Assembly: GCA_964357175.1 (NCBI GenBank)
Contig: CAYHJU010000002.1
Span: 598-64,597, forward strand
Source of the DNA: an uncultured Candidatus Saccharibacteria bacterium
GTDB lineage: Bacteria > Patescibacteriota > Minisyncoccia > GWC2-36-17 > CAYHJU01
DNA: 64,000 nucleotides
Direction of reading: 5' to 3'
In this document: positions 2,850 to 63,700 of the stretch, one piece after another
Layout of the letters: each line of letters begins with the position of its first letter
Position numbering within the stretch: position 1 is the first letter of the stretch
The notes under the pieces: generated by a model
What the model saw: only the letters and a program-made list of their open reading frames with translations
The model's database searches: none
What the model was told of the DNA's origin: nothing
Translations under genes and position numbers: made by a program

Positions 2850-3620
2850 ATGCCGAAGAAAATAATTATAATTTTAATAATAGGCGTTTTTATCCCGATG
2901 GTTTTTGTATTTGCAGAAACTCCATCTCCAACGCCATCTGCTAGTGTTTCGCCGATTATAACGCCAACGCCTCAAATGTCTTCTCCTCTTCCTGAAATCT
3001 CATTAAACCCAGAAGATGTGATAAAGTTTTTAAGCACGCCCTCACTGCTTATAAGTCCGCGGGAAAACGGCATATTGTATGTAGCCCCCAACAAAACTAT
3101 AAATTTTTCTGCTACCCCTCTAAGTCTTCCGCCGGACACAAGCCTAAGGTGGTATGTGAACGGCTCGTTTGTTTCTTCAGAAAAGATTTTTTCTTTTAAT
3201 TCAGGTAGCAGGTCCCCCGCCAAATATTCATTGAGCGTAAGCGCCGATCTTTCCAGCGACCCCATATATGCCCTGCGTGGAATTTCTCAAGTTTCAGCAA
3301 GTGTGATTATAAAAGCTATAGATACGGATTTATATGTTTATGCGTCAGAAAACGCCCCAGTTTCATTTGGGATAAAAACTTTCCCTAAAACAGGAGGATT
3401 TTTTGCCGTAAACGCCATTTCATTTTTAGGAGATGGACAATTTTACTATAACTGGTCAATAGATGATGAGAAGCAGATCCAGTCTTCGGGCATTGGTAAA
3501 AATTCTATAAAAATACAATCTGGTAGCTATCCCGCCACAAAAATAATTTTGCTGGAAATAAAAGATTCTTCTGGAAAATTTATTTTGAGCAAAAAAATAA
3601 GCGTTCCTGTAATTAAATAA
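2850..3620 (+). CDS. secreted protein with signal peptide and Pro/Thr/Ser-rich linker, hypothetical
   Basis: N-terminal hydrophobic signal 'IIIILIIGVFIPMVFVFA' followed by 'TPSPTPSASVSPIITPTP'. Confidence 0.4.
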   Translation: MPKKIIIILIIGVFIPMVFVFAETPSPTPSASVSPIITPTPQMSSPLPEISLNPEDVIKFLSTPSLLISPRENGILYVAPNKTINFSATPLSLPPDTSLRWYVNGSFVSSEKIFSFNSGSRSPAKYSLSVSADLSSDPIYALRGISQVSASVIIKAIDTDLYVYASENAPVSFGIKTFPKTGGFFAVNAISFLGDGQFYYNWSIDDEKQIQSSGIGKNSIKIQSGSYPATKIILLEIKDSSGKFILSKKISVPVIK

Positions 3621-3627
3621 TGATTTT

Positions 3628-4059
3628 ATGAAAAAAATGTTTTTATTTTTATTTTTAATCGCTGGTTTTCTTGCCCCGCTTTCCGTCGGAGCCCAAGAAG
3701 GATGTGGCGTTCCGCCATATTTTAATTATATTTTTAATTTCGGCTTGGGCGCATCAGGTATTTTGGCCATAACAATGATTGTATTGGGAGCAGTACAAAT
3801 GATGCTCAACGCCGCAAATCCTAGCGCGCAAACTGCTGGCAAAGACAAAATAAAAAGCGCGCTTATGGGCCTTGCGTTAATTTTTGGGTCGTGGTTAATC
3901 TTATATACCATAAATCCAGATTTGGTGAATTTCAGTCAGGCGTTTAACTCTGTTTGTAATGACCCCATTCAATTACCAAGCGGAGGGGGGCCGGTAGGAT
4001 CACCATTTCAGGGTGGAGGAGGTAGAAGTGGCGGTGGAGGAGCCACCGGAAGTTGGTAA
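3628..4059 (+). CDS. putative VirB2/TrbC-like T4SS pilin (signal peptide + two hydrophobic helices + Gly-rich tail)
   Basis: Long signal peptide 'MKKMFLFLFLIAGFLAPLSVGAQ', then two TM segments 'GILAITMIVLGAVQMM' and 'ALMGLALIFGSWLILYTINP'. This is the typical TrbC/VirB2 pilin topology. The C-terminus is 'GGGGRSGGGGATG'. Confidence 0.4.
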   Translation: MKKMFLFLFLIAGFLAPLSVGAQEGCGVPPYFNYIFNFGLGASGILAITMIVLGAVQMMLNAANPSAQTAGKDKIKSALMGLALIFGSWLILYTINPDLVNFSQAFNSVCNDPIQLPSGGGPVGSPFQGGGGRSGGGGATGSW

Positions 4060-5234
4060 ACAAATATAGCAATAATTTAAACGATATGGATAGAAAAAAA
4101 ATAATTATAATATCTTCAATCGGGGCTGGCGTGTTAATTTTAATAGGGATTTTAATCTATTTAATCATTCCTAAAAGTTCTCCGGCAGAACAGCCCGCTT
4201 TAAGCGGAAGCCCTATGGCATCCACGCCCTCTGGTGATAATCTAAGCTCGTCTCAAAATTCGATTTTAAATGAAATATTGCCCGCAAATATAGTTAGTTT
4301 TGTTTGGTCAGATATAAATCAAAAATTTACAGCGATTTCTTCAAGTGGTTTTTTATACTCTATAAATCCCAGTGATTTTGCGGTAAGCACCACCACCAAC
4401 TTTGGCGTTTCCGGCATAATCAAGGTTGTTTGGTCACCCAATAAAAGCAAGGCTGTAGTTTATCGTAATGAAAATGGAGTTTTGAAAAAGTTTTATTTTG
4501 ACGCCATAAGCCAAAATATCACCCCTTTGGGTGATCAGATTGGCAGCGTGACTTTTTCTCCTAAGAGTGATCAGATTTTGTATGTGTTCAATCAATTACA
4601 AAATAGTGTTTTGAAGTCTTTTTTGTCTATATCAAATCCTGACGGTACAAAATGGAAAAATCTATCAGCTTTTTCAATGCCCGATACATTGCTTTATTGG
4701 CCATCGGGCATAAAAGCTTATGCTATAAGTCCAGCTTCCGGCCTACTACCAAATAGCGTTTATTCGATTGATGTAAAGACTGGCGCTTTGCAAAAATTTT
4801 TAGCGGAACAAAATGGTCAGCAGATTAAATTCTCACCCTCAGGAAATGGGCTTTTGTATTCTTTTGTTGATAGTCGCGGAAAAAACTTACAATTATTTTA
4901 TAAAAATCTAAAAACAAATTCTGACACGCTCTTGCCAATAAAAACCTTGCCCGAAAAATGCTCTTTTGACAAAACTGAAGAAAATGTTTTCTGCGCCGCG
5001 CCGAATAAAATTTCGTCAAGTGCTATTATGCCAGATGATTATTATAGCAACAAGCTAAATCTTGATGACAATTTGTGGGTTTACAATATTCAGTCAAATA
5101 GCGCCTCTCAAATCATTTCTTCTGAAAATATCACGCCTATAAACATAAAAATGTTGGAGGTTTCGCCGGATAATTCCTATATTATTTTTATTTCTCAGAA
5201 AGACGATAGGTTGTTTCGATTACAAATTAGATAA
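4053..5234 (+). CDS. membrane-anchored extracytoplasmic protein, hypothetical (possible beta-propeller/TolB-like repeats)
   Basis: N-terminal TM 'IIIISSIGAGVLILIGILIYLII'. Repeated 'F/WSP...' segments follow. Last gene of the plus-strand block. Confidence 0.4.
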   Translation: MVNKYSNNLNDMDRKKIIIISSIGAGVLILIGILIYLIIPKSSPAEQPALSGSPMASTPSGDNLSSSQNSILNEILPANIVSFVWSDINQKFTAISSSGFLYSINPSDFAVSTTTNFGVSGIIKVVWSPNKSKAVVYRNENGVLKKFYFDAISQNITPLGDQIGSVTFSPKSDQILYVFNQLQNSVLKSFLSISNPDGTKWKNLSAFSMPDTLLYWPSGIKAYAISPASGLLPNSVYSIDVKTGALQKFLAEQNGQQIKFSPSGNGLLYSFVDSRGKNLQLFYKNLKTNSDTLLPIKTLPEKCSFDKTEENVFCAAPNKISSSAIMPDDYYSNKLNLDDNLWVYNIQSNSASQIISSENITPINIKMLEVSPDNSYIIFISQKDDRLFRLQIR

Positions 5235-58209: not shown

Positions 58210-59232
58210 ATGGAATTAGCAATTATATTAGCTATTATTGTTGTCTCGTTGGCCCTATTTTTTGATTTTACTAATGGTTTTCACGACTCGGCAAATCAAG
58301 TGGCCACGGTAATTGCTTCGCGCGCCTTGCCTCCGGCGGCCGCTTTGGTTATTGCCGCGATGGCAGATTTTGTGGGGGCTTATTTTTTTGGTACGGCGGT
58401 AGCGGAAACTCTTGGCAAGGGCATAGTTGACCCCAGGGCTTTGAATGCTGGCGCTTCCGGAGTTTTAGTAATCATAGGGGCTATCTGCGGAGCTATTTTG
58501 TGGAACATCATAACGTGGTATTTTGGCATGCCGTCATCTTCATCGCATGCTTTAATCGGGGGTCTTGTGGGATCATTTGTGGTGGGGTGGGGATTTGCGC
58601 CCATTCATTGGTTGAAGGTTTTTGAAATTATTTTAATAATGATTGTTTCTCCCTTGGTTGGATTTAGTGTTTCTTATTTTTTTACCCGATTAGCCTGGAG
58701 ATTTTCTCAACGGCTTACTCCGAAGGTTAATGAGGTTTTTAAAAAAATGCAGATTTTTTCTTTGGTGGCGCAAGGAATTTCTCACGGTACAAACGATGCC
58801 CAAAAAACTATGGGTGTCATAACCTTCTCTTTGGTTATTTTAGGTCTCTATAATCCAGGAGGTAGTTCTTCTATGCCCATTCCTTCGTGGGTTATTGTAG
58901 TTTGCTCTTTGGCGCTGTCTTTGGGGACCATAATAGGCGGCTGGAGAATCATCAAAACACTTGGGGCCGGGCTTTATAAAATTAGGCCTATTCACGGATT
59001 TGTTTCACAAGTTGCATCATCTGCTATAATGTATCTGACCGCCGCGTTTGGCTTTCCCATCTCTACGACCCAGGTGATTTCTTCTTCTGTTATGGGCGCC
59101 GGTGCCGCCACGCGCATTAAGATGGTTAGGTGGCAAGTGGCCAAAGAGATGGCGGTGGCATGGCTTATCACCATACCAGTGAGCGCTATTTTGGCTGGTA
59201 CAATTTTTTATATTTTAAATAAAATTTTTTAA
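58210..59232 (+). CDS. pit: inorganic phosphate transporter, PiT family
   Basis: PHO4 signature 'NGFHDSANQVATV' and the second-half repeat 'HGTNDAQKTMGVI'. Confidence 0.8.
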   Translation: MELAIILAIIVVSLALFFDFTNGFHDSANQVATVIASRALPPAAALVIAAMADFVGAYFFGTAVAETLGKGIVDPRALNAGASGVLVIIGAICGAILWNIITWYFGMPSSSSHALIGGLVGSFVVGWGFAPIHWLKVFEIILIMIVSPLVGFSVSYFFTRLAWRFSQRLTPKVNEVFKKMQIFSLVAQGISHGTNDAQKTMGVITFSLVILGLYNPGGSSSMPIPSWVIVVCSLALSLGTIIGGWRIIKTLGAGLYKIRPIHGFVSQVASSAIMYLTAAFGFPISTTQVISSSVMGAGAATRIKMVRWQVAKEMAVAWLITIPVSAILAGTIFYILNKIF

Positions 59233-60186: not shown

Positions 60187-60210
60187 AGCTTCTTGGCTCC
60201 TTATTTTTTT
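60182..60210 (+). terminator. rho-independent terminator
   Basis: taaggagc ttcttg gctcctta followed by ttttttt. Confidence 0.6.
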
Positions 60211-60464
60211 AAAATGCACCTCTTATTATCATATATAGTCGGAGCGTTTAAATCTCCGTTTTCCAACATAGAAAAAACGAGGCACTGTTCATTATCAAAT
60301 TCAACGCATATTCGAAGAAAGATCTTAGATGTAGGCTTTGTTCTGAGATTGCTGATTTTCTTAATGGTTTTGTCCCGTAGTTTCAGCCTTAAATCTTTAA
60401 TGAACAATTGGAAAAGCGCTTTTTTAAATTCTCTGCGGATAACCCTTTTTTGTGCTTCTGTCAC
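60201..60464 (-). CDS. small K-rich hypothetical protein (uncertain; a plus-strand ORF 60193-60498 overlaps it)
   Basis: 87-aa ORF with composition typical of this genome. The competing plus ORF is hydrophobic and serine-rich. Confidence 0.25.
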   Translation of the reverse strand: MTEAQKRVIRREFKKALFQLFIKDLRLKLRDKTIKKISNLRTKPTSKIFLRICVEFDNEQCLVFSMLENGDLNAPTIYDNKRCILKK

Positions 60465-60571
60465 AACCCATCTCCTTTTTCAAAGAACTAAAACTTAAAT
60501 GAAGTTTAAATTATTTTTTCTGTTTAATCAAGCGAAACAGCAATTTTTTTCTGAAATATAGATAGAAAAAG

Positions 60572-60600
60572 GGCCGATGTGCGTGTTGCACATCGGCCCT
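60572..60600 (-). terminator. rho-independent terminator for the high-GC gene (12-bp GC stem)
   Basis: gggccgatgtgc gtgtt gcacatcggccc. On the minus strand it is followed by a T-run, tttttctatc. Confidence 0.65.
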
Positions 60601-60625
60601 AGACCACTTTCGCCGCTTTTCTGGA

Positions 60626-61255
60626 CTACGCCGTCACGAGTTGGACGGCGCCATCCACGATGCGGAGGCAGTAGTCGGCCTTGAGAGGGAGCGGAGCGTC
60701 GCCCATGCGATTGCCGCTTGCGTCCTTCTGCCACACCGTTACGATCTGGCCATCGGGACGAAAGAGCGGCTGGCGCACTTCGAGGTTGATGCTCAGGGCG
60801 CTCTGGTCGAGAACCTCCTCACCGTTCTTGTAGAACGGATTGGAGAACGACCTTACGCGCCACATCGCGCTCTCGCAGATGTTCTGGAGGTCGATGCGGA
60901 TGGTGCCTCTCGCCGCCTTGAACTCATCAGAGCAGTTCACGAACTCACGGCGGGCGAAGAGGAAGCGTACCATGTGGTATGTCCTCTTTCTTCGGGGATC
61001 CTTGGCATCGATGCGCTCCTTGTAGAACGCGTCGACCATTTCGTACCCAGCCGCCTCGAGTTCTCCGAGAAACTCTGCGAGTGAGCACTTCTCGGTCGGT
61101 TCGATGACCATGATGCCGTTCGAGTAGCTCTTTCGCTCCACGCGCTCTTCCTGAGTCTCTGGGCTCCGGCGTTTCACCGACGTCGGTATCGCGTCGGGAT
61201 TTGTGAAGCTGAACTGCAATGCAACTAAACGGATGGTGCCATTCAGTGCGATCAC
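60626..61255 (-). CDS. hypothetical protein encoded in a ~0.7 kb high-G+C segment (probable recent horizontal acquisition)
   Basis: GTG start with GAAAGGGGG 7 nt upstream. Codon usage and G+C differ sharply from all neighbours. It has its own consensus promoter and terminator. Confidence 0.5.
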   Translation of the reverse strand: MIALNGTIRLVALQFSFTNPDAIPTSVKRRSPETQEERVERKSYSNGIMVIEPTEKCSLAEFLGELEAAGYEMVDAFYKERIDAKDPRRKRTYHMVRFLFARREFVNCSDEFKAARGTIRIDLQNICESAMWRVRSFSNPFYKNGEEVLDQSALSINLEVRQPLFRPDGQIVTVWQKDASGNRMGDAPLPLKADYCLRIVDGAVQLVTA

Positions 61256-61296
61256 GGTGGGCCCCCTTTCAGCTCAGGTTCAGTTAGATTATTGGA

Positions 61297-61355
61297 CTAT
61301 TTCACACAGTCTTGCTAGCAAGGCCGAGGGTTACAAGCAAAACTATGTGAAATAG
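61297..61355 (-). promoter_or_regulatory. palindromic leader/operator: outer inverted repeat CTATTTCACACA...TATGTGAAATAG enclosing perfect 12-bp palindrome CTTGCTAGCAAG
   Basis: Located between the promoter and the RBS of the high-GC gene. Confidence 0.45.
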
Positions 61356-61387
61356 CGCATGGAAAAGAACTATACTTCTATGTCCAC

Positions 61388-61416
61388 AGCATAGCAGATT
61401 TTATTGTGTTTGTCAA
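61388..61416 (-). promoter_or_regulatory. near-consensus sigma70 promoter on the minus strand (TTGACA-17-TATGCT) driving the high-GC gene
   Basis: Reverse complement of 61411-61416 is TTGACA. Reverse complement of 61388-61393 is TATGCT. The spacer is 17 nt. Confidence 0.5.
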
Positions 61417-61435
61417 GTATTTTGGGCAAGTGAAT

Positions 61436-63700
61436 TTAATCAAGAGAGACGGAAACGCCATCCATCTTTTCTCTAAAATGTGGATAGTTTTTTAGCTCCG
61501 GATCTTGCGCCAGCATTTCCCCTGCGGTTTTTTTAGCGGCATTTACCATCTTTAAATTGGCCAAAGACGACATCGCAAAGTCGGGCAGACCTGATTGTTT
61601 TTCTCCGACAAATTGTCCCGGGCCACGCAATTTCAAATCATATTCGGCAAGTTCAAATCCGCTGTGGGATTTTACTAATGCCTCAAGACGGTCAAATGCT
61701 TCTGGGTCGGTGGAATTTGTAAAAACAAAACAAAACGATTGCGTGTTTGATCTCCCCACGCGTCCTCTTATCTGATGAAGTTGCGCCAGACCAAATCTTT
61801 CGGCGCTTTCGATAATCATCAAAGTGGCGTTGGGCACATCCACCCCCACCTCCACAATGGAAGTAGATATTAAAATCTGAATTTTATTTGATTTAAAATC
61901 CTGCATTATTTTGTTTTTTTCGTCAGCCTTCATTTTTCCGTGGAGCATGGCGCATCTAAATTCTGGAAAGATGTTTTTGGATAAATTTTCAAATTCTTCT
62001 TTTACCGCCTTTATTTCTGATTTTAAATTTAATTTTTGTTGCGCTAAAACTTGGCGCGAGCTTGGCTGTTCTGAAAAATTATCCGCACCCTTTTGATTTT
62101 CTTGGCCGCTTATTTCTATTCGTGGACAGACTACAAATGCCTGCTGATTTTCTTTTAATTTTCCTCTTAAAAATTCATATGCCCGTGAGCGGTCTTTTGG
62201 CGAAACGATTTTGGTGCCGATCTTTTTTCTGCCCAAAGGCATTTCACGAAGCTGTGAAATGTCCAAATCTCCATAAAAAGCGATAGCCAAAGTGCGCGGT
62301 ATAGGGGTGGCGCTTAATGACAAAAGATGAGGGATTTTTCTAAGTCCCGATTTTGCTCGTAGAGCCTTTCTTTGTTTTATGCCAAAGCGGTGCTGTTCAT
62401 CTATTATGGCGAGCGCCAAATCTTGAAATTCTAAACTTTCCTGGATGAGGGCGTGCGTGCCTATGACAATATCAATTTTTCCCTCTTTTATTATTTTATA
62501 AACCCCCACACCTTTTTTATAAACATAATCCTGTTTATCTGTTGATTGATGCGATTTTTTTAACCCCCCATCTTTTATGTTTATTGCTTTTAAGGTGTGG
62601 GGGTAAATTTCTGGATTTTTATTTCTTAAATCAACCATCAATTTTTCACTCGATGTTAGGAGGGCTAGATTTATATTTTCACCAGAAAATAATTTTATAA
62701 AAGATTCAAAATGTTGCCGAGCTAAAATTTCAGTCGGCGCCATCAAAGCGACCTGTTTTTTTTCAAGAGCGACGTTAAAAGCGGCGATAGCGGCCACAAT
62801 GGTCTTGCCTGAGCCGACATCCCCCTCAATGAGGCGATTCATGGGCGTTGGTTTAGAAATATTTTGCAGAATTTCCCAAACGATCCTTTTTTGGTCATGG
62901 GTCAAAACGAAAGGGAGTTTCTGAATAAATTTTTTGATTTCTTCCAAATGTATTTTTAGCGCTTTGGATTTTTCTTTCTCTAAATTCCGGCGGTCTTTTA
63001 GGATACGCAGTTGTATTTCAAGCATTTTTTCAAACGCAAATCTTTTTTGGGCGTCTTTGCACAGTTTTAGGTTTGCAGGGAAATGAATATTTTGTAGGGC
63101 AACGTCTATTTTTGGCAGATGGTATTCTTTAATTGTTTTTGAGGGCAGGGTTTCTGGAATTTCTTTTACCAAATAAAACAAAGAATCAATTTTTTTTCTT
63201 AGCCACTTGGACGAGACGCCTTTCGTTTCAGGATATACCGGCACGATTTTTCCTGTCTGGGTAAGCCCAGATTGTCCAGAGACAATCTCAAAAGATGGGT
63301 GATACATTAAAATTCCGTTTTTGTCGCCAGACACCTTTCCGGAAGCGTTAATTTTTTCTCCAATTTTTAATGCTTTTATTAAGTATGGTTGTCCAAACCA
63401 TACCAGGCGCAAAGAGAATCCGTCCTGTTCAATAACGGCTTGGGTTAACATCCGATAACGAAAAGTCCTTACATTATGAACATTTTTTATGGTGCCAGAT
63501 ATTGTGGCGACTTCTCCAAATTTAAGATCTTTAATATTTTTGATATTGGAAAAATCTTCATATCGCGAAGGAAAATAAAAAAACAAATCGTGCACCTTTT
63601 GCAGGCCCATATTTTTTAGACGCAACGCATAAGAAGCGTTTGCCCGCGGAAGATCGGCCAAATTGGTTTCCATGCTTATTTTTATTTCTTTTTTTGTCAT
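61436..63700 (-). CDS. recG: ATP-dependent DNA helicase RecG (carrying an in-frame 35-aa insertion encoded by a MITE-like element)
   Basis: Wedge domain. Helicase motifs 'GDVGSGKT' and 'IIDEQHRFG'. TRG motif region. The insertion lies between motif I and the 'IVIGTHA' segment. Confidence 0.85.
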   Translation of the reverse strand: MTKKEIKISMETNLADLPRANASYALRLKNMGLQKVHDLFFYFPSRYEDFSNIKNIKDLKFGEVATISGTIKNVHNVRTFRYRMLTQAVIEQDGFSLRLVWFGQPYLIKALKIGEKINASGKVSGDKNGILMYHPSFEIVSGQSGLTQTGKIVPVYPETKGVSSKWLRKKIDSLFYLVKEIPETLPSKTIKEYHLPKIDVALQNIHFPANLKLCKDAQKRFAFEKMLEIQLRILKDRRNLEKEKSKALKIHLEEIKKFIQKLPFVLTHDQKRIVWEILQNISKPTPMNRLIEGDVGSGKTIVAAIAAFNVALEKKQVALMAPTEILARQHFESFIKLFSGENINLALLTSSEKLMVDLRNKNPEIYPHTLKAINIKDGGLKKSHQSTDKQDYVYKKGVGVYKIIKEGKIDIVIGTHALIQESLEFQDLALAIIDEQHRFGIKQRKALRAKSGLRKIPHLLSLSATPIPRTLAIAFYGDLDISQLREMPLGRKKIGTKIVSPKDRSRAYEFLRGKLKENQQAFVVCPRIEISGQENQKGADNFSEQPSSRQVLAQQKLNLKSEIKAVKEEFENLSKNIFPEFRCAMLHGKMKADEKNKIMQDFKSNKIQILISTSIVEVGVDVPNATLMIIESAERFGLAQLHQIRGRVGRSNTQSFCFVFTNSTDPEAFDRLEALVKSHSGFELAEYDLKLRGPGQFVGEKQSGLPDFAMSSLANLKMVNAAKKTAGEMLAQDPELKNYPHFREKMDGVSVSLD
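62503..62603. mobile_element. MITE-like palindromic element copy C, inserted in-frame inside recG (TIR CCCCCACACC / GGTGTGGGGG, flanked by TAAA direct repeats)
   Basis: Element is 101 bp plus a 4-bp duplication, 105 nt in total (35 codons). On the minus strand the TIRs are translated as 'PHTL' and 'GVGV'. No stop codon falls in the recG frame. Confidence 0.6.

Follow-up and report, generated by a model that had tools for sequence, protein, structure and literature searches.

The window analysed here comprises 64,000 nt from an uncultured Candidatus Saccharibacteria bacterium (GenBank assembly GCA_964357175.1, contig CAYHJU010000002.1, positions 598 to 64,597); the contig stems from Hainich groundwater (H41/H43/H51). 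Next to the 3' end of its recG gene, and on the same strand, lies a single open reading frame (ORF) for a protein of 209 amino acids (aa), accompanied by a predicted promoter, a leader with a long hairpin, a Shine-Dalgarno (SD) sequence and an intrinsic terminator. We refer to this unit as the cassette. Its base composition differs sharply from that of its surroundings: the 600-nt bin 60601-61200 has a G+C content (GC) of 0.597, whereas the other 105 of the 106 bins range from 0.25 to 0.46. In 200-nt windows, GC rises from 0.345 to 0.625 at ~60.55 kb and returns to 0.385 at ~61.3 kb. The gene itself reaches 0.589, against 0.384 for the remaining window, and its three codon positions show values of 0.58, 0.41 and 0.78 (GC3 0.78). 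A first-pass annotation had proposed a recent horizontal acquisition of a self-contained, probably regulated expression unit at this place. The compositional excursion on which it relied is real, the cassette holding the sole 600-nt bin above 0.46, and all sequence features that it listed were found where it had placed them, with small corrections (the terminator stem has 13 bp and not 12, the outer palindrome of the leader is longer, and a TG extension of the -10 element had gone unmentioned).

The promoter (Table 1) matches the consensus at 10 of 12 hexamer positions and, according to the consensus scan, also carries the TG of an extended -10 element at 61396-61395. With at most two mismatches allowed, TTGACA-N14-TGnTATAAT occurs at four sites in the 64 kb (0.88 expected), one of which is the cassette promoter. 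In homologous cassettes of other loci it is kept as TTGACA-N17-TGCTATAMT at equal distance from the start codon; hexamer spacing and conservation in homologues point to a predicted promoter of the sigma-70 type, from which we infer a transcription start ~7 nt past the -10 element. The SD is kept as GAAAGGAGG or GAAAGGGGG across homologues and is presumably an 8-9-nt complement of the 16S rRNA tail. The terminator consists of a 13-bp stem with nine G-C pairs, a 5-nt loop and a T5 run (-33.4 kcal/mol, z = -5.6). Its sequence is kept in homologues with compensatory changes in the stem, and its GC-rich stem-loop with a U-run after the stop codon has the build of a Rho-independent terminator.

Table 1. 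Features of the cassette and its borders (positions in the window; UTR, untranslated region; CDS, coding sequence).
Feature	Position	Strand	Basis or remark
recG CDS	61436..63700	-	ORF list
Intact recG 3' end (R), left copy of the duplicated target	61436..61487	-	four-way alignment A4
Spacer of 19 nt, recG stop to -35	61417..61435	-	similarity between loci begins ~2-4 nt before -35
Predicted promoter	61388..61416	-	-35 TTGACA 61416-61411, 17-nt spacer, -10 TATGCT 61393-61388
Predicted 5' UTR, ~125 nt	61256..61381	-	promoter/start-codon geometry and leader alignment
AGTTCTTT box	61364..61371	-	kept as AGYTCTTT in long- and short-leader members
Long leader hairpin	61297..61355	-	5' arm 61355-61331, 3' arm 61321-61297, 9-nt apical loop
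SD GAAAGGGGG	61262-61270	-	sequence; 6 nt before GTG
CDS of the cassette	60626..61255	-	ORF list; 209 aa, GTG start, stop included
3' UTR with predicted intrinsic terminator	60565..60625	-	stem-loop 60600-60570, T-run 60569-60566
R', decayed copy (~42 nt) of the final ~52 nt of recG, with pseudo-stop; right-hand insertion scar	60524..60565	-	direct repeat D2, alignment A4
Displaced intergenic leader (I), once downstream of recG	60470..60523	-	homologous to the leader before ORF172 in L069 and L048
Orphan ORF87	60201-60464	-	preceded by the displaced leader; outside the cassette

Family loci were collected from genome and metagenome scans (81 loci, with labels such as L001). By BLAST, the window region is similar to at least 12 of them over a block that starts at 61418, 2 nt before the -35 element, and ends at 60542-60568, with 72-84% identity. 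In an all-against-all comparison the left edge always lay at -156 to -163 from the start codon, and the right edge varied (+58, +84, +112, +133, +147, +226). Whole-unit DNA identity between loci with non-homologous flanks amounts to 72-92%; within the block, L001 and L002 are 89%, L002 and L021 92%, and L021 and L023 within 89-92% identical, while the DNA outside is unalignable. The neighbours are recG in the window, a C39 peptidase and PilB in L016 (Uhrbacteria), tRNA-Arg in L004 (Parcubacteria), UDG and ClpB in L095 (Liptonbacteria), and DnaJ and tRNA-Lys in L096. Since near-identical copies lie in unrelated places in other Patescibacteria, horizontal spread is indicated, and the unit of promoter, leader, ORF and terminator moves between genomes as a block. 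Clustering of the neighbour proteins of 52 loci revealed clade-local synteny and no recurrent partner, and no homologue was found in IMG/VR, in 50,697 GenBank phage records or in 72,556 PLSDB plasmids. Within ~6 kb on the one annotated side of the window cassette there is no transposase, integrase, defence or phage/island gene. No contig or locus examined carries a second copy, genome-wide copy number not having been tested.

The borders of the cassette in the window point to an insertion. Because an intact recG end and a decayed copy of it (R and R' in Table 1) bracket the cassette, ~0.87 kb would have been inserted with duplication of the target, and the decayed copy, which begins directly after the T-run of the terminator, reads as the right-hand insertion scar. 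Positions 60544-60477 of the window match the recG end and intergenic DNA of L069 (3183-3250; 84% over 68 nt, E = 3e-16). Over ~420 nt, recG of L020/L069 is 86% and that of L048 81% identical to recG of the window, and these sister lineages also have the cassette downstream of recG, again after a recG-end-like copy. The age given by the first-pass annotation therefore does not hold: the unit already stands by recG in L020, L069 and L048 and has diverged like recG (cassette 84%, dS, the synonymous divergence, 0.45; recG 86%), and the duplicated recG end has decayed. As the divergence of the cassette equals that of recG, acquisition would predate the split of the sister lineages. The gene lies at this position in close relatives only and elsewhere in distant ones, so that the argument against recent transfer which the first-pass annotation had named beforehand, presence of the gene at this position in relatives, applies to close relatives only. 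The self-contained and horizontally acquired nature of the unit, in turn, is borne out by the 72-92% identical promoter-to-terminator block in non-homologous flanks, by the scar and by the substitution pattern described below.

The arrangement differs between the window and its sisters. An unrelated Cys-rich ORF172 separates recG from the cassette in the sister lineages, and the window instead has the unrelated ORF87 past the cassette. The order is thus recG, module, ORF87 in the window and recG, ORF172, module in the sisters, each unit following a recG-end copy (window 60201-60523 on the reverse strand; L069 3204-3778; L048 3291-3822). ORF87 and ORF172 share a leader of ~45 nt (AATAATTTAAACTTYATTTAAGTTTT...AAAAAGGRG); neither has a Pfam match, and ORF87 has no PHROG match either. 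The L069 copy of the cassette gene (4001-4585), otherwise nearly the same as that of L020, differs from it by an internal deletion of ~130 nt and a frameshift. This copy represents either a pseudogene or a variant of the assembly, and its product is the database cluster representative P0269; as one sister copy carries this deletion, the gene seems dispensable. A general target motif TTTAATCAAG/CTTGATTAAA was considered and rejected, as other cassette borders are without its 8-mer core, which turns up roughly every 13 kb. At 19 other loci, direct repeats in the flanks did not exceed the level of shuffled controls.

The base composition of the family provides a second line of evidence. At 63 of 68 loci the gene exceeds its flanks in GC, the mean difference being 9.4 points. 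In the clade at least 70% identical to the window protein, cassette GC is 0.55-0.62 in host flanks of 0.33-0.57, and in an Uhrbacteria host with flanks of 0.574 the gene (0.584) looks native. The neighbour-joining tree of the family interleaves hosts of very different GC. On the branch leading to the window, polarised with seven outgroups, 29 GC>AT changes face 10 AT>GC changes (18:6 at third positions), and on the sister branch 24 face 9 (15:0 at third positions). With this excess of ~3:1 the gene is off compositional equilibrium and is ameliorating, its GC falling towards the host value, and composition and substitution bias together fit an arrival from a GC-richer lineage of the Patescibacteria. 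Locus L055 (162-794) shows the reverse contrast, a member of 0.41 in flanks of 0.52, and transfer seems to go from AT-rich to GC-rich hosts as well.

A word-indexed search returned 192 homologues of the 209-aa protein. The best 120 of the 192 are 54-100% identical to it and nearly all 198-231 aa long, and the organisms named among these 120 are all Patescibacteria (Uhrbacteria, Liptonbacteria, Parcubacteria). An exhaustive profile search enlarged the family to 668 clusters at 50% identity, nearly all of them single-domain proteins of 190-235 aa. Outside the Patescibacteria it was met on one 4.9-kb contig binned as Gammaproteobacteria (L001, CAZVIU010000068.1) and in one protein labelled Pacearchaeota, both of which are probably misbinned or mislabelled. 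The latter, P0271 of L011 (OZ246399.1), belongs to a 655-kb 'Saccharibacteria' chromosome and is also filed as 'Pacearchaeota archaeon'; its nearest relative (61%) is from Minisyncoccales. The family is large, uncharacterised and seen nearly exclusively in the Patescibacteria. No match to Pfam, PHROGs, NCBIfam or PADLOC was obtained for the protein or for 39 family members; Pfam and NCBIfam gave no match, and thus no transposase, for the 39 members even at E <= 10 or <= 1, and the PADLOC defence models gave chance-level hits (E ~0.008 in one or two of the 39). Against PDB sequence profiles there was a single match with E = 0.73, lost with a broader profile, and we found no paper on the family in a literature search. 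The earlier statement that no family could be recognised is correct for curated libraries and not for the protein as such, which has the relatives just described.

Pairwise ratios of non-synonymous to synonymous substitution (dN/dS) are 0.10-0.24, with differences concentrated at third positions. The AlphaFold2 model is of high confidence (predicted local distance difference test, pLDDT, 91.8; predicted template modelling score, pTM, 0.87) and shows a beta-rich, two-part structure. Given the dN/dS values with their third-position excess and the pLDDT of 91.8, we regard the ORF as a real and selectively maintained protein gene. Foldseek searches of the model against PDB and BFVD returned best E-values of 0.02-0.07 with template modelling (TM) scores of at most 0.29, which are meaningless. 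The protein, with a pI of ~7.6, is predicted to be cytoplasmic, of neutral pI, beta-rich and outside known folds. W132 and R161 are the only residues invariant throughout the broad family; Q14, F15, P24, E33, R81, R97, F100, N139, N157, P163, G169, G181, P190 and L197 are near-invariant. The conserved Arg, Asn, Gln and aromatic residues in predicted beta-strands are compatible with a ligand- or nucleic-acid-binding surface, which is a weak guess from the model. A domain fusion in longer members was rejected: the 312-aa protein P0149 has no Pfam domain and looks like a deletion/fusion artefact.

The leader of the cassette had been described as a set of nested palindromes, suggestive of a repressor operator or an RNA switch. 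The outer palindrome (inverted repeat I1) has arms of 25 nt each that are 84% complementary, and the leader RNA folds at -42 kcal/mol (z = -3.3). The inner 12-mer CTTGCTAGCAAG (61311-61322) is part of the 3' arm. In homologues it reads TTGCTGGCAA or TTATTGGCAA and is palindromic in none; the inner palindrome is a private G-to-A change in the 3' arm of the window. RNAalifold on 18 aligned leaders (alignment A2) yielded one helix of 24 bp in which 19 of the 24 pairs show double compensatory changes. Paired cells make up 88.6%, against 76.2 +/- 1.1% in shuffles (reached in 0 of 500) and 34-49% with slid partner columns, and the 19 covarying pairs compare with 8.3 +/- 1.8 in shuffles (again 0 of 500). 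Hairpins of the same length, but with no resemblance in sequence, occupy this position (25-55 nt before the start codon) in other subfamilies. Among 62 distinct leaders 19 score at least 13 for a hairpin, a score that none of 310 shuffles attained; roughly two thirds of the family members are without a hairpin.

Non-Watson-Crick positions in the stem are G:T in 28 and A:C in nine cases; since G:T exceeds A:C, selection acts on the fold of the sense strand, be it RNA or possibly single-stranded DNA, and not on a duplex protein site. We therefore depart from the earlier interpretation of the leader: conservation is limited to the outer palindrome, and what is kept there is the pairing and not the sequence (19 of 24 compensatory pairs, unrelated stems between subfamilies, G:T to A:C of 28:9). 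An RNA switch finds no backing either, as Rfam gives no match, neither a loop nor a bulge that could serve as a ligand pocket is conserved, and about two thirds of the members have no hairpin. The permissive Rfam search brought up sub-threshold microRNA-hairpin look-alikes only (26.5 bits, gathering score 50) and nothing in relatives, and no conserved aptamer features were seen in the consensus, which is one uninterrupted helix with a loop of variable sequence and length and no conserved bulge. By its pattern of substitution, the hairpin is a structured element maintained by compensatory evolution on the sense strand. It would most likely be a double-stranded RNA (dsRNA) element of the mRNA, where it may be processed by RNase III or, as a stability determinant, may tune half-life or translation; its 24 bp fit the length of an RNase III substrate (~20 bp or more). 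Because short-leader members exist and the L048 hairpin is truncated, it is optional and non-essential.

Further leader elements are shared by both leader types, including a CA-rich tract before the SD. The 8-mer of the AGYTCTTT box is not enriched in the window (eight matches, 4.9 expected). As an anti-SD it could form 5-6 bp with GAAAG(G), and RNAalifold did not predict this pairing. Attenuation by a leader peptide was rejected, as the 5-codon ORF of the window is not conserved and L001 has no ATG there, and so was a type III toxin-antitoxin system, tandem repeats and a terminator between hairpin and gene both being absent. In L036 (105-242) the ancestral 5' arm is gone, the 3' arm (GCAAAATTGCATGAAGTAG) is kept and a new, unrelated 24-bp hairpin lies just upstream, which suggests repeated selection for a long hairpin at this position.

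At 11 distinct loci a tRNA gene on the same strand ends 130-336 nt upstream of the start codon (Arg-gcg at four loci, Lys-ttt at two, and Arg-tcg, Leu-tag, Leu-taa, Glu-ctc and Ala-tgc). From the tRNA density of the same loci 0.52 would be expected (Poisson P ~1e-11, shared ancestry uncorrected). Co-transcription is not the reason for the adjacency, since a separate terminator stands between the tRNA and the cassette promoter in L024. Four loci share an extra segment of ~175 nt with a terminator-like hairpin upstream of the -35 element (L001 1230-1405, L021 3479-3655, L016 ~955-1125, L023 1-100). In L001 and L021 it starts right behind the CCA of a tRNA, Leu-tag in the one and Arg-tcg in the other, and these two tRNAs have the 3' end GGGGGCACCA in common. 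Past the extended cassette of L021, by ~25 nt, lies a 17/18-nt copy (4688-4705) of the D-stem/anticodon-arm segment of the upstream tRNA-Arg(tcg) (3403-3478), which may be a second example of target duplication. In some relatives the block also extends 85-170 nt past the terminator (L021 4490-4667; L002 940-1116; partly L001, L004, L023 and L027). This extension has an extended -10-like TTTGTATAAT followed by a GC-rich, hairpin-rich stretch whose end, ...GTTCGAAC...TGCACCA, resembles a tRNA 3' end. Rfam gave no match and ARAGORN no tRNA for the extension, and the window is without it; a small RNA not yet listed, or what is left of a tRNA, may lie here.

We consider it probable (about 0.65) that an autonomous, monocistronic cassette of ~0.87 kb (~60566-61418) was acquired horizontally from a GC-richer lineage of the Patescibacteria and inserted at the recG 3' end. 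Its transcription would be strong and largely constitutive, given the near-consensus extended -10 promoter, the SD and the efficient terminator, and the leader hairpin would act in the mRNA as a dsRNA element and neither as a repressor operator nor as a ligand-sensing switch. The cassette has no recognisable mobility gene and was most likely moved passively, by DNA uptake and recombination. Genes for tRNAs and the recG end are conserved enough in sequence to give recombination an anchor even where genomes have diverged. Potentially, recombination was anchored in such sequences and completed by an illegitimate join on the other side. The duplication of the recG end, the raggedness of the right edge and the surplus of upstream tRNAs would then all be explained. 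Passive transfer is favoured because the right edge is ragged, contigs and loci are without a second copy and the protein bears no recombinase signature.

Several observations weigh against this reading or against parts of it. The left edge lies exactly at the -35 element and is sharper than random illegitimate recombination predicts. No relative with an empty site was found, as an exact-protein look-up of the neighbouring PhoU-like gene gave module-containing contigs only, and we therefore infer the insertion from the scar alone. Even deep branches on which the family seems to be vertically inherited show a higher GC than their hosts, for which a single GC-rich donor is insufficient. Intrinsic pressure (expression-linked codon choice, GC-biased gene conversion, selection at the mRNA level) may thus add to the GC excess in the window, and repeated transfer from a GC-rich reservoir, GC-biased gene conversion and mRNA selection may all contribute to the GC-richness of the family. 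As to the leader, the G:T bias fails to separate folding of RNA from that of single-stranded DNA, and many members, the close relative L048 among them, have a truncated hairpin or none at all.

These points have their counterpart in other explanations. A native, vertically inherited gene, GC-rich by a property of the family (C/G-ending codons with high expression, mRNA selection, gene conversion), would have the excess over flanks in 63 of 68 loci on its side, which includes deep and locally syntenic subfamilies, as well as the sister copies at the same recG locus with a divergence equal to that of recG and expression signals built for high output. It is nevertheless unlikely in view of the 89-92% identical blocks in non-homologous flanks of hosts up to 24 GC points apart, the duplicated-target scar of the window copy, the 3:1 ratio of GC>AT over AT>GC changes that places the gene away from equilibrium, the reverse case of L055 (gene 0.41, host 0.52) and the lack of any other 600-nt bin above 0.46. 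An artefact, such as an assembly chimera or a contaminating GC-rich fragment, can practically be dismissed: the compositional switch is abrupt, but identical junctions occur on contigs of several independent samples and assemblers, sister lineages share the neighbourhood, and host-derived duplicated sequence stands on both sides. A phage 'moron', or a remnant of a prophage, plasmid or genomic island, is highly improbable, as the phage, viral and plasmid collections named above and the PHROG models contain no relative, no phage or island gene lies within the ~6 kb of the annotated side, and the inserted DNA measures only ~0.87 kb; an architecture of promoter, gene and terminator with deviant composition between two genes, the large serine recombinases 3-5 kb away in two relatives and the adjacency to tRNA genes would fit such an origin.

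Self-mobilisation, with the protein as a new recombinase or transposase that targets tRNA 3' flanks and gene 3' ends and the hairpins of leader and terminator as single-strand recognition sites in the manner of IS200/IS605, is very unlikely. The protein has no similarity to Y1/HUH, DDE, serine or tyrosine recombinases and no invariant His, Tyr-plus-acidic or Ser catalytic constellation (W132 and R161 alone are invariant). Two copies were seen on no contig or locus (genome-wide copy number not tested), the right edge is ragged (+58 to +226), the other loci tested show no significant flanking repeats, and the hairpins are missing in many members and differ completely in sequence between subfamilies whose proteins are still 55-70% identical. 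What speaks for it is the discrete, identical left edge in many independent contexts, the small size of the unit with a stable hairpin near each end, a G:T bias that fits one-strand folding and could reflect single-stranded DNA, the strong preference for sites downstream of tRNAs and the target duplication around a window copy that has no other mobility gene. Little credit can be given to a regulated unit, be it with a dimeric repressor that binds the palindrome as its operator or with a ligand-sensing riboswitch in the leader. A large palindrome does lie between promoter and SD, in a long (~125 nt) and partly conserved leader with AGYTCTTT and CA-rich boxes; yet pairing and not sequence is conserved, arms of 24-25 nt are much longer than operator half-sites and are fully replaced between subfamilies, the strand-asymmetric G:T excess speaks against a duplex DNA site, the simple helix has no conserved internal loops or junctions and no Rfam match at threshold, the inner palindrome is unique to the window, and no regulator gene travels with the cassette. 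The sharp left edge and the order swap at recG leave a small chance for a site-specific or self-encoded mechanism. It is tempting to speculate on a new kind of minimal mobile cassette in the ultra-small bacteria of the candidate phyla radiation (CPR), quite unlikely as we judge it, in which either a novel-fold protein inserts the DNA with strand-specific hairpins or the recG end serves as an integron-like attachment site. The self-inserting version could place the cassette beside tRNA genes and gene 3' ends, with the hairpins as recognition sites; the integron-like version, in which promoter-bearing single-gene cassettes are captured and reshuffled, is raised because of the different order in window and sister and the recG-end copy before each unit.

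The cassette can be compared with several known systems. Phage morons, as reportedly described by Hendrix and colleagues, are autonomous units of promoter, gene and terminator with deviant composition, inserted between genes. Like them, the cassette combines one gene with a promoter and an intrinsic terminator of its own, in sharp compositional contrast and in varied contexts between unrelated genes. Unlike them, it is chromosomal and not part of a prophage, has no homologue in phage and viral collections and is conserved at the DNA level across many host lineages. In general, mobile DNA is AT-richer than its host, whereas the cassette is GC-richer. Homology-facilitated illegitimate recombination in natural transformation, said to have been described by de Vries and Wackernagel and by Prudhomme et al., shares with the cassette a conserved anchor (recG end, tRNA genes), a junction duplication, a ragged distal edge and the lack of a dedicated recombinase; the left edge of the cassette is unusually precise for it, and host competence is assumed. 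Integron gene cassettes and Acinetobacter pdif modules are small single-gene modules moved by a recombinase in trans. They resemble the cassette in size (~1 kb) and in having one gene per module, and the recG hot spot is suggestive of an integron in that module and orphan-ORF unit each follow the same short sequence and have swapped order between sisters. Unlike in these systems, the cassette boundary shows no imperfect palindrome of the attC or dif type (no dedicated attC model was run), and the annotated 6 kb are without an IntI or Xer gene. The hairpin at the 3' end has the form of a canonical terminator, the cassette brings a promoter along, and the repeats occur at this one locus only. 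With IS200/IS605 insertion sequences the cassette shares a size of ~0.7-0.9 kb, a single short ORF, stable hairpins close to both ends and a stem-loop in the 5' UTR, but it has no Y1 HUH transposase domain, no conserved ends, no locus or contig with multiple copies and a ragged right edge. Hairpins in 5' UTRs that are processed by RNase III or are stabilising are known from the lambda N leader, the E. coli rnc leader and T7 early mRNAs. The cassette has in common with them a perfect or near-perfect duplex of ~24 bp in the mRNA leader whose pairing and not sequence is conserved; in contrast, its hairpin is optional in the family and lies ~25 nt from the predicted 5' end with the SD outside.

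Patescibacteria have tiny genomes, are mostly uncultured and encode many proteins of unknown function. The present family (at least 668 clusters, a confident model and no Foldseek match in PDB or BFVD) travels from lineage to lineage among them as a complete, ready-to-express module, which implies a portable benefit or a selfish property. The cassette is distinguished by a whole expression apparatus conserved in DNA, a novel protein family, an unlisted leader, its association with tRNAs and its lasting GC-richness. It could serve as a natural marker for DNA movement, with insertion anchored at tRNAs or gene ends, an amelioration clock and a GC above that of nearly all hosts. The conserved promoter, leader hairpin, SD and terminator are a candidate expression module for genetic tools in Patescibacteria, and the leader adds a structured 5' UTR element absent from Rfam. 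If the cassette were self-mobilising or integron-like, a new mobility mechanism would be at hand.

Some minor observations concern the surroundings of the cassette. Large serine recombinases (Resolvase, Recombinase and Zn_ribbon_recom domains) lie 3-5 kb from it at two unrelated loci (L018 9770-11095; L089 113-1813), the one in L018 adjoining a type I restriction-modification methylase. For the L089-type cassette, contigs of several samples break ~300 nt upstream, which suggests strain-variable DNA. In the window, the gene of a PHO4-family phosphate transporter (58210-59232) has local GC peaks of 0.50-0.545 at 58300-58600 and 58900-59200, the next-highest values near the cassette, together with a strongly negative AT skew. 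This gene is kept in the sister lineage, and its peaks probably reflect the composition of a membrane protein rather than transfer.

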